A stretch of DNA of 64,000 nucleotides from a virus, in IMG/VR virus record IMGVR_UViG_3300031992_000005, positions 256,001 to 320,000 of that record. The stretch is one strand, 5' to 3'. Made by a program: the position numbers and the translations under genes. Below the pieces are notes generated by a model. That model was given only the letters and a program-made list of their open reading frames with translations. It was not told the origin of the DNA and did not search any database. This document shows, in pieces, positions 306 through 37,798 of the stretch (positions are counted from its first letter, which is position 1; each line of letters begins with the position of its first letter).

Positions 306-830
306 ATGATAGTACTAAGACCAAAAAAGATCTGTTTTCTTACAGGTTTTATGGCTAAAGAATTAGGAAAGCATCAGATAGAAGACTGTTTAAAATCTTT
401 TATTCCAGAGCTACAAGTACCTAAATTAAGAAGTGATCCTAGTTTGGGTATTAATGATCTAAAGAAGATCCAGAAAACTAAGTGGGATTTAGTTATTGGT
501 TTTAGTATGGGAGGATTTTACGCAACTAAAGTAAAATCCAGAAAAACATTTTTAATAAATCCGGGACTTAATATATCAGAGGGAATGATGACAAAAGTTC
601 CTGAATACAGCCCAGGTTTCAAAATAATTGAAAAGCTACCGGATTTAGCAAAAGATGTGACAGGTATGATTGCTGTTAATGATAAAATTAGACCTTACAT
701 AGAACCAATCTTTATTGAACGGTACGGTAAGGAAAACCTTATACATTTTCCCGGGAAACATGTACCAGAGATCCCGATAATCGAACAGTTTATTATACCA
801 GAAATTAAAAAAATTATAGCTACCTTATAG
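306..830 (+). CDS. Leader-tagged alpha/beta-hydrolase, YqiA-like esterase
   Basis: N-terminus MIVLRPKKICFL (leader). It has a GxSxG nucleophile elbow in LVIGFSMGGFYAT. The overall layout (LTGF ... GFSMGGFYAT ... LINPGL ... PGKHVP) parallels E. coli YqiA (LHGF ... GSSLGGYYAT ... VVNPAV ... GGNHAF). Confidence 0.6.
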   Translation: MIVLRPKKICFLTGFMAKELGKHQIEDCLKSFIPELQVPKLRSDPSLGINDLKKIQKTKWDLVIGFSMGGFYATKVKSRKTFLINPGLNISEGMMTKVPEYSPGFKIIEKLPDLAKDVTGMIAVNDKIRPYIEPIFIERYGKENLIHFPGKHVPEIPIIEQFIIPEIKKIIATL

Positions 831-852
831 GCTATTTTAATATATAATAGGA

Positions 853-1254
853 ATGATAATTCTTAGAAATAAAGTATTTGCTGTACCTCAAGCAGGAGAA
901 ATGGTAGATATAGTAAAAAACGGAAAATATACAGGCCCTCCTCAATCTCCTCAGGCACAACCTCAGCAGGTTCCCCAAGAGATAACCTCAAGGGATCTTC
1001 AAATTGAGCAGATGAGATTACAAAGACAGCAAAGATTATTGCAGCATCAGAAAGCTAAGTTACAGGTGCAAGAAGGATTAGCAAGAACAAGAGCCATTAC
1101 ACAAAGACAGAAAATAGAAGACGAAAAAAGAGAGCATGATTTAAAGAATATAATGGAAATACATAAGAGAATTTACGATGATAATGAAGTACATAATCCC
1201 ACATTATATAAATCAAAGTCAACTATTACTGCACCTGTAGCTATGCCTAAATAA
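853..1254 (+). CDS. Leader-tagged hypothetical protein, Q/P-rich then coiled-coil-like
   Basis: N-terminus MIILRNKVFAVP. Contains PQSPQAQPQQVPQ followed by QRQQRLLQHQKAKLQ. Confidence 0.6.
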   Translation: MIILRNKVFAVPQAGEMVDIVKNGKYTGPPQSPQAQPQQVPQEITSRDLQIEQMRLQRQQRLLQHQKAKLQVQEGLARTRAITQRQKIEDEKREHDLKNIMEIHKRIYDDNEVHNPTLYKSKSTITAPVAMPK

Positions 1255-1365
1255 TATTGTAATTATGGAAGAGAAGGAGAAACTTTTCACTGTTGGAGTA
1301 GAAAATATTCGGGCAGAGGAAAAGAAAGAAAAAAATGGTTATAATCCTTTAAAGGAAAAAGAGTA

Positions 1366-1644
1366 ATGATTATAACTAGGAATAAGTTTTATAGTGATTC
1401 CGGTTATTTGGGGGATTCTTTACGACAGAACGTAAACCTAAGCCGAGTAGAAGAGATAGGTGATAATTTAGTTTACAGAATAGCAGACGTTGCCGATGCA
1501 GGATTAGATTACGCTGCTAATTCAAACCCTATTGTTGATAAAGCAACCTCTAAGGTTAGAAAAAGAATAAGTGGTTTCACTAAACCTATAAAGAAATTAA
1601 TAACTTTGAAGAGAAAAAGGAATAAGAATAAAGGTTTAGAATAA
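1366..1644 (+). CDS. Leader-tagged small hypothetical protein with basic C-terminus
   Basis: N-terminus MIITRNKFYSDS; C-terminal KLITLKRKRNKNKG. Confidence 0.55.
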   Translation: MIITRNKFYSDSGYLGDSLRQNVNLSRVEEIGDNLVYRIADVADAGLDYAANSNPIVDKATSKVRKRISGFTKPIKKLITLKRKRNKNKGLE

Positions 1645-1672
1645 CCTCATTATTTATTAAATCATAAGTGAT

Positions 1673-2044
1673 ATGATTATACTTAGAACAAAGGAGTTTT
1701 CTATTAGTGCTGCTGAATCCAAGTACTGGAAAGCACTTTGGGAAGAATATAATAAAAAATTTAAAACTTCAAAACTAAAATTTGAGTTTAGGGACAGACC
1801 AAACGGACTTATTAAGTTTTCTTTTCAGGGTACTGCTCGAGTTTATATTGAGTTTAATAAAATAAGAGCTACAGATTATAATGGTGAAGATATATCTGAT
1901 TCTAAGTATTACGTTTGGCATGAGCTTGTAAATTTCTTAGAAGAAGAGGAACCTCTTTTAAAGAGGGATAATATAACTTATGAAGGAATTACCTGGCTTA
2001 TTCAAATACTTCGAAAAGAATTATTAGGAAAAAAATTGCACTAG
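1673..2044 (+). CDS. Leader-tagged hypothetical protein
   Basis: N-terminus MIILRTKEFSIS; 123-aa intact ORF in the co-directional gene array. Confidence 0.55.
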   Translation: MIILRTKEFSISAAESKYWKALWEEYNKKFKTSKLKFEFRDRPNGLIKFSFQGTARVYIEFNKIRATDYNGEDISDSKYYVWHELVNFLEEEEPLLKRDNITYEGITWLIQILRKELLGKKLH

Positions 2045-35437: not shown

Positions 35438-35501
35438 ATTACTCTAATACACTAAATACCAGATATAAATCTGGCAAAAAATATTAATAAAACAATTCAG
35501 G

Positions 35502-36488
35502 ATGTCATTAATAGTTAGATTGAAAAGAAAGATGTTTGCTTGGAATGACAATAAAGCAAACACTTATGAGTATTGCCTAAGAAATCCAGATAAGGATGAA
35601 AATGCCCAAAGAATAAAGGGGATGGAAGAAAAATATCCTGAAGAGACCGCTAGATTAAAAGAAAAATTGAAAGATCCTAACTTCACTACAAATAATACAA
35701 AAGCTAATAATAGTCAGAGGAATTCCTATTATGAAAATTATAAAGCGACAACTCCAGAAGGAATAAAGGTAGATAAGGATCTTAAAAGTGGTTTAGATAG
35801 TCTTAATAAACAGGCAAGAAAAGAAAATAAACAACTACTAAAAGCTATTCAAAGAAAAAAGAAAATAGCTAATATTGCAGGTATTGGAGGAGGAATTGCT
35901 GCAGCAGCAGGTTTAGGATATGGCCTAAAGAAAGCTCATGATAATAAAAAAGCTTGGGAAGAAGAGAAAAAGAATATTAAAGTAACTGATCCTTCTGGGA
36001 AAAAATTGACCCAAGAAGAACAAGACTATTTCAGAGGCAAGGAAACAAATAGTCAAAAAAATAGCCGCAAAGGTACTTCAAGTAGAATTCTTGGAGCTAC
36101 GGGAGCCGCAGGAAGCATGCTCGGAGTTGTTAGAGGCAAGAAAATAATAGATGGAGCTAATGATACAATACTTAGGCACATGGACCGTATTAGTAAAGAA
36201 CAAAACCTAGTTAATAGTGTTAAAGGTAAAATCAATGCTGATGTTGCTGCAGTCCAAAATAAATATATGCAAAAAATAGCTAATAAATCTATCAGCAAAC
36301 GAGCAGCTGCTGAACGTTTACAAAAAAGAGTTTTGAAAAAGGTAAATAAAAGTATGATAGGCGGTGTTTCTGCAGGATTATTAGGCGGTGCAGCATTAGC
36401 AGCTATGTATAATACTAATAAAAAGATTAAGAACGAGCGTCTTAATTCTAAAAGAAGATTGGCAGCTTTACAGAAAAGTGAAGCATAA
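35502..36488 (+). CDS. Extended-leader membrane-type protein, tandem paralogue A
   Basis: N-terminus MSLIVRLKRKMFAW. Shares IAGIGGGIAAAAGLGYGLKKAHDNKKAWEEEKK and a C-terminal GGVSAGLLGGAALAAMY segment with 36504. Confidence 0.65.
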   Translation: MSLIVRLKRKMFAWNDNKANTYEYCLRNPDKDENAQRIKGMEEKYPEETARLKEKLKDPNFTTNNTKANNSQRNSYYENYKATTPEGIKVDKDLKSGLDSLNKQARKENKQLLKAIQRKKKIANIAGIGGGIAAAAGLGYGLKKAHDNKKAWEEEKKNIKVTDPSGKKLTQEEQDYFRGKETNSQKNSRKGTSSRILGATGAAGSMLGVVRGKKIIDGANDTILRHMDRISKEQNLVNSVKGKINADVAAVQNKYMQKIANKSISKRAAAERLQKRVLKKVNKSMIGGVSAGLLGGAALAAMYNTNKKIKNERLNSKRRLAALQKSEA

Positions 36489-36503
36489 AAGAAAATTAAC
36501 ATT

Positions 36504-37346
36504 ATGTCATTAATAGTTAGATTGAAAAGAAAGTTGTTTGCTGCTTGGAATGAAAATCTCAGAACCGTATACGAACATGCATTAGATAACCAGGATAAAG
36601 AAGCTGAAAGAGAATATAGGTCATTGTTAGAGGAGAGATTCCCTAAACAAACATCTGGTATAAAAGATACGAGGAGATTCGTTAAAGACGTAAAAGACTC
36701 TTTTAGAGACATAGATAAGGCAGCAAGAAAAAAGAATAAGCGACTACTCAAAGTGGCTAAAGCAGCTAAAATTGCAGGTATTGGAGGAGGAATTGCAGCT
36801 GGAGCGGGATTAGCATATGGCTTAAAGAAAGCTCATGATAATAAAAAAGCTTGGGAAGAAGAGAAAAAAGGAATAACGGATCCCAATAAAATAAATTCAC
36901 TGAAAGAGAGCAAAGATCAGAAAAAAAATAGACAACTGGGTGAAGGGGCTATTGTAACTGCAGGAACACTTGGTGGTGCATTAACAGGTGCAGCTATCGT
37001 AGGTAGACAAAAAGCTAGAGCAGATAAGCTATATGATAGAAAATTCGATATCTACGGAAAGAAGATGCTCGAACGACATAAAAAATTTGATAGTTATGCA
37101 AGATCTTCACCATATGGCGTTGATAGGATAATAGATGCTGACAGCAAATTTGTGAATAAGCTATCTCAAGATTGGCGAAGTAAAGGTCTAGCTCTTGATC
37201 GACTAAATAGAAAGATAGGTAAAAAAGCTCCTGGTAAAGTACTAAAAGCTGCAGGATTAGGTTTAGCTGGAGGTGCTGCATTGGCTACTATGTATGGTAT
37301 TAATCAAAAAGTTGCCAATGAAAAGAAAAACTCCACGAACAAATAA
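36504..37346 (+). CDS. Extended-leader membrane-type protein, tandem paralogue B
   Basis: N-terminus MSLIVRLKRKLFAAW. Contains IAGIGGGIAAGAGLAYGLKKAHDNKKAWEEEKK and a C-terminal GLGLAGGAALATMY. Confidence 0.65.
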   Translation: MSLIVRLKRKLFAAWNENLRTVYEHALDNQDKEAEREYRSLLEERFPKQTSGIKDTRRFVKDVKDSFRDIDKAARKKNKRLLKVAKAAKIAGIGGGIAAGAGLAYGLKKAHDNKKAWEEEKKGITDPNKINSLKESKDQKKNRQLGEGAIVTAGTLGGALTGAAIVGRQKARADKLYDRKFDIYGKKMLERHKKFDSYARSSPYGVDRIIDADSKFVNKLSQDWRSKGLALDRLNRKIGKKAPGKVLKAAGLGLAGGAALATMYGINQKVANEKKNSTNK

Positions 37347-37384
37347 AAAATTGTACAAAAAATAAACAATAAATACACTAAATT

Positions 37385-37798
37385 ATGATTATACTAAGAA
37401 CTAAAACTTATTCACGATTAGAAGATGAAGATTATCGTGATAAAATGTATGAAAAGAAGAGAGGCGTTAAGCACGCAAAGGCAACCGGTGCACTGGTAGG
37501 AGCCGGATTTGGAGCAAGTCTAGGTGGAACACTTGGTAGTGCAGCAGGTGGTAGAGGTGCACTAATTGGTGCCGGTATAGGAGGAGTTGCCGGAGGTGTA
37601 GGTGGTTATCATCTAGGCAGGAAAGAAAAAGATAGAGTTGAAAAAGAAGTTGCCAGAAAGCTAGATCGTTATGAAAATGCTAACGAAAAGGATAGAGCTT
37701 ATTTGAGAAGAAAAGAGGAAAAGGATGAAGAGATGGCACTTCGTAAACAGCAGGTAGCTGCTCAGACTCAAATGGCGATGAATTCTTATAGATGGTAA
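37385..37798 (+). CDS. Leader-tagged glycine-zipper protein
   Basis: N-terminus MIILRTKTYSRL. Contains GALVGAGFGASLGGTLGSAAGGRGALIGAGIGGVAGGVGGY, followed by a charged helical tail. Confidence 0.65.
   Translation: MIILRTKTYSRLEDEDYRDKMYEKKRGVKHAKATGALVGAGFGASLGGTLGSAAGGRGALIGAGIGGVAGGVGGYHLGRKEKDRVEKEVARKLDRYENANEKDRAYLRRKEEKDEEMALRKQQVAAQTQMAMNSYRW

Follow-up and report, generated by a model that had tools for sequence, protein, structure and literature searches.

What does a short peptide do when it opens some two dozen otherwise dissimilar proteins of a single phage? The question is raised by a stretch of 64,000 nucleotides (nt) of viral DNA, positions 256,001-320,000 of the IMG/VR record IMGVR_UViG_3300031992_000005 (the whole stretch is called the window below, and coordinates count from its first letter), which forms the structural region of a highly divergent phage with a contractile tail. 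Genes in this region begin with variants of a leader, M-I-I-L-R-x-K-x-F-S, which an earlier note on the same DNA had likened to the capsid targeting sequence (CTS) of phage T4. Through comparison with related loci, we found that this leader is a widely conserved peptide and that its core recurs at conserved sites inside the head-assembly proteins themselves. We propose, at a probability of roughly 0.6, that the leader is an N-terminal propeptide of 9 to 10 residues which ends in a site for the phage's own prohead protease and which, in the manner of the T4 CTS, is borne by head-internal or ejected proteins.

Results

The leader was sought with a strict pattern, M-[ILV]-[ILVK]-[LFITK]-[RK]-x-[KR]-x-[FY]-[SATG], slightly looser than that of the earlier note in that position 4 may also be K and position 10 may also be G. 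A six-frame scan of the window returned 14 matches, every one of them at the start of an open reading frame (ORF) on the plus strand, with none on the minus strand and none internal. From amino acid frequencies, one would expect 0.0005 such matches among the 60 gene starts, or 0.15 anywhere in the 18,803 residues encoded. The strict members start at 853, 1366, 1673, 2507, 4982, 5192, 6214, 14892, 15576, 18277, 22093, 22667, 32541, and 37385, and about 10 further genes carry variants that are one residue shorter, extended, or slightly altered and that depart from the letter of the earlier pattern. The earlier count of about 28 genes with a shared leader is thus sound, and far beyond chance, for these two groups, but four of the genes then listed have the N-terminal part of the leader only. 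When 264 distinct leaders, drawn from both the window and related loci, were anchored on the aromatic residue, the profile read M(-8) I(-7) I(-6) L(-5) R/K(-4) x K/R(-2) x F/Y(0) S/A/T/G(+1), with a modal length of 10 and a sharp drop in conservation past the small residue at +1.

Selection acts on the leader peptide and not on the DNA that encodes it. The Ile, Leu, Arg, Lys, Phe, Ser, and Tyr codons of the leaders match genome-wide synonymous usage (all chi-square P values > 0.13), and members differ even in codon family (TCN or AGY for Ser, CTN or TTR for Leu, AGA or CGN for Arg). No conserved DNA was found in the 30 nt upstream, where each position holds less than 0.4 bit of information, a level that does not surpass that of untagged genes. 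The view that differing synonymous codons point to the peptide as the object of selection is therefore upheld.

To find relatives, we used as bait a conserved 360-residue protein of the head module (13424-14506), which carries no motif and stood in for a major capsid protein (MCP). The loci around its homologs (57 to 64% identity) all have leaders, on the coding strand only, and a back-translated leader pattern retrieved 115 IMG/VR stretches, many of them on contigs of 100 to 400 kb; a single stretch often held several tagged ORFs. These relatives are uncultivated contigs of 100 to 420 kb from IMG/VR and from gut and rumen data. The tagged genes themselves vary from one relative to another; among 94 ortholog pairs of tagged genes, 73 retain a recognizable leader, often on bodies only 25 to 50% identical. 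Absence from related genomes had been named as an outcome that would speak against a functional tag; instead, the leader proved to be clade wide.

N termini are not the only place where the leader core, [KR]-x-[FY]-[SATG], is found. Conserved internal sites occur in the head-assembly genes, and they form islands of conservation; in the 284- and 929-residue proteins described below, identity is 0.78 to 0.90 at the sites compared to 0.35 to 0.39 in the flanks. The earlier statement that the core genes lack the leader consequently holds for the full leader at N termini but not for the core motif, which lies within the protease and within proteins of 284, 929, and 483 residues that follow it.

The first of these genes (6829-8115) encodes a protein with a prohead-protease fold (residues ca. 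1 to 190) and a C-terminal domain, an assignment made by AlphaFold2 modeling and Foldseek. In the BFVD database, the model of the first ca. 200 residues matched prohead core serine and capsid maturation proteases (E values of 1.7e-5 to 1e-3, probability 1.0, TM score of ca. 0.5), and nearly all of the named top hits were proteases of these two kinds. H90 and S144, 54 residues apart, are invariant in 12 sequences and by analogy would be the catalytic His and Ser. Four K-x-[FY]-[ST] sites lie in the protease linker (nt 7429-7440, 7504-7515, 7585-7596, and 7642-7653), and these are conserved in 9 of 9 orthologs. In three gut relatives (loci L126 to L128, at ca. 5235-6640), the gene is split into a protease-domain ORF of 169 to 195 residues and a second ORF of 221 residues, the latter beginning with MVKTFS, that is, with one of the conserved linker sites. 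In a further relative (L125), the protease gene is intact and is preceded by a gene for a 382-residue helix-turn-helix protein.

Next comes a 284-residue zinc-ribbon protein of the head module (8112-8966; weak zinc-ribbon matches in Pfam). It opens with two cores in tandem, MKRLKIFS and RRKIFS (nt 8124-8135 and 8166-8177), an arrangement present in 11 of 11 orthologs, and has further sites at residues 106 to 109, 120 to 123, 133 to 136, and 154 to 157; its six core sites compare with 0.58 expected (z = 7.3). The scaffold-like protein encoded downstream (8970-11759) is acidic (pI 4.1), is 929 residues long, and starts with MKNTRFMEAMFS. Here there are 17 core sites where 0.96 would be expected (z = 16.8), and 15 of them are conserved columns amid variable acidic linkers (identity of 0.78 versus 0.36 in the flanks). 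Three repeat units of ca. 113 residues, recognizable at the protein level, carry three sites each (EKEYSD, TRFFSE, and ERLFSD). Tandem Repeats Finder did not detect these three units as DNA repeats; a short 21-bp DNA tandem repeat is found at 11456-11508 of the same gene.

The 483-residue product of the following gene (11788-13239), a putative MCP, is the most conserved of the head proteins, with 60 to 80% identity among related loci and 72 to 96% among its 120 best database matches. Its only three core sites (REYA, KMFS, and KTFS; nt 11881-11973) fall in residues 32 to 62. The KTFS site, in the context LLQKTFS|GYAETPLLSTQYF..., stands exactly where variable sequence gives way to invariant sequence, is present in at least 103 of the 120 family members, and scores 13.9 bits against a position-specific scoring matrix made from leaders only. 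A Foldseek search (3Di+AA) matched the protein to proteins annotated as MCP with an E value of 1.7e-15; since the AlphaFold2 model is poor (predicted local distance difference test [pLDDT] score of 48, TM score of ca. 0.2), this match is only a weak pointer. We tentatively suggest that the protein is the MCP with a propeptide of ca. 61 residues. Its mature form is predicted to start at or after S62-G63, with SGYAETPLLSTQYFNASVASYVSSFAGYMSIER if the chain is cut between F and S or with GYAETPLL... if it is cut after S.

Core sites are also found where genes have fused. The tagged gene at 22667-24274 (leader MIKFKKKEFT, 535 residues) is a fusion of genes for ca. 405 and ca. 120 residues that are separate in five relatives (L004, L008, L027, L064, and L066). 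The second of the separate genes starts with MIILRTKTYS, and the fusion junction retains KKKKLFS (nt 23933-23944). In L004 to L007 and L009, the homolog of the gene at 17689 is joined to that of the gene at 18277, and the junction, which has no Met, reads RLKKIFS or VKFRNKLFS.

The tagged proteins have a character of their own. Stripped of the leader, they have a median pI of 9.6, with 25 of 27 above 8, whereas the untagged proteins, mostly structural ones, have a median of 5.0, with 4 of 33 above 8 (P = 2e-8). They are short (median, 138 residues) and together take up ca. 14.7 kb, or about 23% of the window. BLAST found relatedness between bodies in two pairs only (35502/36504 and 5539/34117), in line with what the earlier note had said of everything beyond residue 10 or so. 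That description nevertheless misses what the bodies share: besides the basic charge, glycine-zipper segments recur in 11 of 28 tagged proteins as opposed to 2 of 32 untagged ones (Fisher P = 0.0035), which suggests a common membrane-active or self-associating module. The segments take the form GxxxGxxxG and are rich in Gly and Ala; examples are found in the genes starting at 2507, 5539, 15805, 17301, 18277, 35502, 36504, and 37385. Enzyme-like or otherwise recognizable domains and motifs in the set comprise GNAT, UPF0227, DUF5856, HExxH, and Gly-zipper_Omp.

Upstream of the head module, the full leader is found at 853-1254 (MIILRNKVFA; 133 residues, basic), 1366-1644 (MIITRNKFYS; 92 residues), 1673-2044 (MIILRTKEFS; 123 residues), 2507-2950 (MIIIRTKEFS; 147 residues, glycine zipper), 4982-5182 (MIIIRYKTFA; 66 residues), 5192-5389 (MIVLRQKQYS; 65 residues, pI 11.7), and 6214-6747 (MIILRNKLYS; 177 residues). 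These genes, like all others in the window, lie on the plus strand. The glycine-zipper protein of 5539-6132 has a variant leader, MLIKRNVYFS, together with an extension, AIDE..GEERLYS, that it shares with its paralog at 34117-34629 (MLIKRRVYFS), and the family to which the two belong is multicopy in relatives. At 2047-2414, a tagged gene is broken at a run of seven A residues (2056-2062). The ORF (ATG CTG TTG AAAAAAA...) halts after 16 codons, and a shift by -1, or an mRNA with one A more, would join it to the downstream frame so as to read MLLKKKRFSESKPE..., a leader variant (MLLKKKRFS) on a glycine-zipper protein. The interruption may reflect a fault in the assembly, a pseudogene, or slippage, whether programmed or transcriptional. 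The UPF0227 (esterase-like) gene at 306-830 has a partial leader, MIVLRPKKICF, whose leader-like residues may lie in the beta-strand with which the hydrolase fold begins.

Several of the tagged genes that follow the head module are well conserved. The gene at 14519-14905, with a partial leader (MITFKRKTFE; MITFKKKTLT in orthologs), is conserved in nine relatives; that at 14892-15575 (full leader MIKFRQKIFS, 227 residues) is also conserved and keeps its leader in 9 of 9 orthologs. Full leaders are likewise present at 15576-15800 (MILLRNRNFS; 74 residues, conserved) and 18277-18960 (MIKFKRKEFS; 227 residues, glycine zipper). Between these lie a 100-residue glycine-zipper protein with an extended leader, MATYRLKRKTYG (15805-16107), a 389-residue protein in which MIKFRQKNFV, with no small residue at +1, is followed by a hydrophobic segment (16126-17295), a conserved 134-residue glycine-zipper protein that begins with MILFRKYFT (MIIKRKLFT in orthologs; 17301-17705), and a gene with a weak or partial leader, MAIRTKAKSV (17689-17985). 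The full leader MIILRQKEYA heads a 184-residue protein at 22093-22647, next to the fusion gene described above. The gene that separates it from the sheath gene (21259-22089) starts with MDKTLLVDLKKKMFMRS from a Met that is conserved in all orthologs and has a leader-like basic-x-F; because the residue after F is large, we left this gene out of the tagged count.

Farther downstream, the DUF5856 protein of 32118-32534 (MIFKQKTYS) is the sole acidic member of the set. It is followed by a 309-residue protein with the full leader MIILRQKEFS and an HExxH motif at residue 114 (32541-33470), a 134-residue protein with MIIRQKEFG (33470-33874), and a GNAT acetyltransferase (34757-35143) whose partial leader, MVILRNKFIH, is MVILRDGCFA in relatives. 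Two paralogs with glycine zippers have extended leaders of the MSLIVRLKRK[ML]FA type, namely, MSLIVRLKRKMFA (35502-36488; 328 residues) and MSLIVRLKRKLFA (36504-37346; 280 residues). The last tagged gene (37385-37798) has the full leader MIILRTKTYS on a Gly-zipper_Omp protein.

The window as a whole holds 60 ORFs of at least 50 residues, which span 88% of its length, at a GC content of 31 to 41%; it has no tRNA genes. Shine-Dalgarno (SD)-like motifs precede 5 of 59 genes, below the random background of 14%, so the host is probably SD independent in initiation. Landmarks include the terminase large subunit (3106-4971), which is without the leader and is 25 to 28% identical to annotated TerL genes over ca. 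90% of its length, the sheath (19003-21228; match to phrog_23), an untagged protein of 1,536 residues (24718-29328), a protein of 1,864 residues with lysozyme and M23 domains (38896-44490), and a gp5-like spike (47154-47849). PHROGs and Pfam were almost empty for both the core and the tagged proteins of the window. Searches of GenBank phages (blastn and tblastn) gave no match to the head module, the 360-residue protein, or the sheath, and the terminase alone found relatives there, all distant. The terminase and the 483- and 360-residue proteins had no match when PDB sequences were searched with phmmer and hmmsearch.

Two near-complete relatives have been deposited as bacterial metagenome-assembled genomes (MAGs): CASEGV010000001.1 (L129; 371 kb) as an "uncultured Mycoplasmatota bacterium" and JAGAYY010000025.1 (L130; 376 kb) as a "Bacilli bacterium" from water deer omasum. 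These records are probably phage genomes that were misbinned or were classified through phage-borne marker genes, and it is possible that their labels hint at the host. In relatives, a conserved protein of ca. 555 residues encoded upstream of the protease (L129, 1540-3213; L130, 1637-3298; also L026, L062, L073, L074, L082, and L123) starts with the leader-like sequence MKKSENIFQKMFSG. It has no homolog in the window and is a candidate for the portal.

Discussion

The distribution of the motif follows T4 head maturation almost item by item, and it is for this reason that we read it as the cleavage site of a prohead protease; cleavage, the enzyme, the bond, and the packaging of the tagged proteins are all inferred from sequence. 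The site would be [KR]-x-[FY]|[S/A/T/G], i.e., P3-x-P1|P1', and probably K-x-F|S. The aromatic residue is near invariant, the residue after it is small, and the spacing parallels the A-x-E|S site of phage SPN3US, so that the scissile bond is most likely that between [FY] and [SATG]. Cut at this one kind of site, the putative MCP would be trimmed after ca. 61 residues, the protease would be freed from its own C-terminal extension, the acidic scaffold-like protein and the zinc-ribbon core protein would be chopped into small pieces, and fused domains would be separated. Prohead proteases work within the assembled prohead, and hence the ca. 24 bearers of the leader are most likely prohead-core components kept in the head, where they would stay with the DNA and be open to ejection into the host. 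Their basic charge is what one would expect of proteins packed with DNA. The M-I-I-L-R part is missing from most internal sites; it is the candidate address and, as in the case of the T4 CTS, would probably act by binding either the protease or the core of the scaffold.

In T4, the CTS reads MKTYQEFIAE, and the specificity of the prohead protease, gp21, is L/I-x-E, which has the three-residue layout of the site proposed here but no aromatic P1. This enzyme degrades the scaffold proteins gp22, gp67, and gp68 to small peptides, cleaves itself, cuts short N-terminal peptides from the internal proteins IPI to IPIII and from Alt, and takes 65 residues off gp23 and 10 off gp24 (PMC9958956). The internal proteins of T-even phages are diverse and have in common only the conserved CTS that directs them into the scaffolding core (PMC3012670). 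The likeness to the leader is considerable: the CTS is an N-terminal peptide of ca. 10 residues that is the only common part of diverse, basic, nonessential proteins and that is removed by the prohead protease (PMC3012670, PMC9958956). Moreover, MCP trimming takes off 65 residues in T4 and, putatively, ca. 61 here, the T4 scaffold is degraded to peptides, and the tagged genes vary between relatives. The earlier suggestion that the leader directs packaging, maturation cleavage, or both, as the CTS does, is supported by the core at conserved head-assembly sites and fusion junctions and is in keeping with the basic nature of the bearers. The two systems also differ. The leader has no sequence similarity to the CTS and no conserved terminal Glu, and the probable cut site is K-x-F|S rather than L/I-x-E; there are at least 24 tagged genes in 38 kb as opposed to three internal proteins plus Alt; many members here have glycine zippers; and the system is known here from its genes alone. 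Because leader and P1 differ, and because the protease is visible at the level of the fold only, we do not regard the system as a sequence member of the T4 CTS/gp21 family.

Processing of head proteins in giant phages offers a second comparison. The SPN3US protease, gp245, cuts head proteins, including the MCP and the portal, at A-x-E with Ser preferred at P1'; it has nine known substrates, with propeptides mostly of 111 to 254 residues, and 42 head proteins are left uncut (PMC10052503). PhiKZ and SPN3US (gp175 and gp245, respectively) resemble the present phage in having giant myovirus heads, dozens of internal or ejected proteins, and a P3-x-P1 site. Their propeptides, however, are mostly long and individual, whereas here a uniform leader of 9 to 10 residues ends in an aromatic P1. 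The cargo-loading peptide of encapsulins is also short and conserved on unrelated cargo, and it targets cargo to the lumen of an HK97-fold shell, but it is usually C-terminal and uncleaved, has another sequence, and comes with neither protease nor scaffold; the leader stands at the N terminus, and its surroundings are those of a processing site. A literature search for the motif strings, CTS, propeptide, and prohead protease in jumbo phages and megaphages turned up no account of this leader in the searchable literature. The system stands out by its scale, by the sameness of the leader, and by conservation throughout a clade of uncultivated giant phages.

Several observations weigh against the propeptide reading. 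The protease model is of middling confidence (pLDDT of 71.5) and its matches are predicted viral structures; Foldseek found nothing significant for it in the PDB, and the protein has no match in Pfam (E ≤ 0.01; S77, S78, or U9) or in PHROGs (E ≤ 0.001). The three internal repeat units inflate the site count of the 929-residue protein, and the internal scaffold-like sites match only the short four-residue core. The 483-residue protein could be the portal instead of the MCP, which would leave the argument unchanged, since giant-phage portals are processed as well (PMC10052503). At the gene starts, the family of 16126 has V, F, or W at +1, and the genes at 306, 14519, 17689, and 34757 have the hydrophobic-basic N-terminal part without the [FY]-small core, so that the membership of the GNAT and esterase-like genes is uncertain. 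No cultured relative turned up in the blastn and tblastn searches of GenBank phages. The labels of the two MAGs and the place of some tagged genes beside the spike in relatives count against this reading too and are taken up with the alternatives that they favor.

The alternative that fares best, although we consider it unlikely, is that the motif is never cleaved and serves as a docking peptide for the inner capsid surface or the scaffold, the repeats in the scaffold-like protein then providing multivalent binding. In this it would be like the cargo-loading peptides of encapsulins. Such a role would suit a short conserved peptide that is found on unrelated proteins and in many copies in a scaffold-like protein. 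It would also account for the conservation of M-I-I-L-R beyond the needs of a cut site and for the members without a small residue at +1. Scaffolds of the T4 type, however, are removed by proteolysis (PMC9958956), and the sites that follow the protease domain, mark the border between variable and invariant sequence in the 483-residue protein, or lie at gene fusions occupy classic processing positions. An aromatic residue followed by a small one is, in addition, a typical signature of a scissile bond.

It is less probable again that the leader is cut by some other enzyme, such as a host cysteine protease of the Prp type, in which case not all bearers need be located in the head. In Firmicutes and Mollicutes, Prp removes a 9-residue N-terminal extension (…FF|A) from ribosomal protein L27; capsid and scaffold proteins of the staphylococcal phage 80alpha are also among its substrates. 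The parallel is close in that a 9-residue N-terminal propeptide ends in Phe, is followed by a small residue (Ser or Ala in the leaders), and sits on phage head proteins; the scaffold sites TRFFS and ARFFA, furthermore, resemble QFF|A, and the Bacilli and Mycoplasmatota labels of two relatives leave room for a host Prp that cuts after Phe. Yet the Prp consensus is L-x-L-Q-[FH]-F|A, and the leaders lack the L-x-L-Q signature and have Lys or Arg rather than Gln at P3; Prp, moreover, serves capsid and scaffold only and not a repertoire of cargo. A scan of 50 window proteins gave no match to Peptidase_Prp, the phage has a prohead-protease-fold protein of its own with sites in its own linker, and the near absence of SD motifs (5 of 59 genes) is atypical of Bacilli.

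About as improbable is the loading of the tagged proteins into the tail (the tube lumen or the baseplate), in the way that N-terminal packing signals act on the cargo of extracellular contractile injection systems. The phage does have a contractile tail, as the sheath match and the gp5-like spike indicate, and tagged blocks flank the genes for the sheath, the 1,536-residue protein, and the baseplate. In three human-associated relatives (L070, 11518-13379; L071, 6187-9274; L116, 4290-6151), two to four tagged genes stand on either side of the spike gene, within the baseplate-hub module, a place where the window has no tagged gene. A tail address does not account for the motif where it occurs in head genes, namely, in the linker of the protease, in the scaffold-like protein, and in the putative propeptide of the 483-residue protein. 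None of the 22 tail, baseplate, and fiber genes at 37900-64000 is tagged, and the basic charge of the bearers suits proteins associated with DNA.

The last alternative, a nucleotide-level signal (a translation start enhancer, a promoter-proximal element, or a recombination cassette) with an incidental peptide, would fit the A/T-rich leader codons and the lack of SD sequences but is effectively refuted by the unconstrained synonymous sites with their changes of codon family, the lack of conservation upstream, the occurrence of the motif without an ATG inside other proteins and at fusion junctions, and the different starts of untagged genes in the same operons. Two further candidates were set aside separately. 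Recent duplication of a 5' cassette is ruled out by the unrelated bodies and the scrambled synonymous sites, and a Sec, Tat, or lipoprotein signal peptide by the presence of just three hydrophobic residues, the lack of Cys, and the internal occurrence of the motif.

Returning to the propeptide reading, one may extend it, at a little less than even odds, to a whole clade of gut and rumen phages of 370 to 420 kb. These would load at least 25 interchangeable proteins, basic for the most part and often with glycine zippers, into the capsid through a single address-and-cleave tag of nine residues, served by a prohead protease with a new, aromatic-P1 specificity (K-x-F|S), for coinjection with the DNA, and new cargo would be recruited merely by gaining the tag. 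If true, this would surpass every known virion cargo-loading system in size and modularity and would provide a handle for packaging foreign proteins.

If the propeptide reading is correct, the leader and the K-x-F-S rule predict, for a widespread lineage of uncultivated giant phages, both the mature N termini and the set of proteins that are head internal or ejected, and ca. 45% of the genes in the structural region would pass from "hypothetical" to "prohead core or ejected cargo." The cargo list would then be one of candidate first-strike effectors against the host or its defenses, among them the HExxH-motif and glycine-zipper proteins, with the GNAT and esterase-like proteins included by a partial leader. 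The tag of nine residues would also be a candidate means of bringing foreign proteins into capsids. The prohead-protease family would gain a new specificity, and the T4 strategy would have arisen, or been retained, in a very distant lineage at roughly 10-fold scale.

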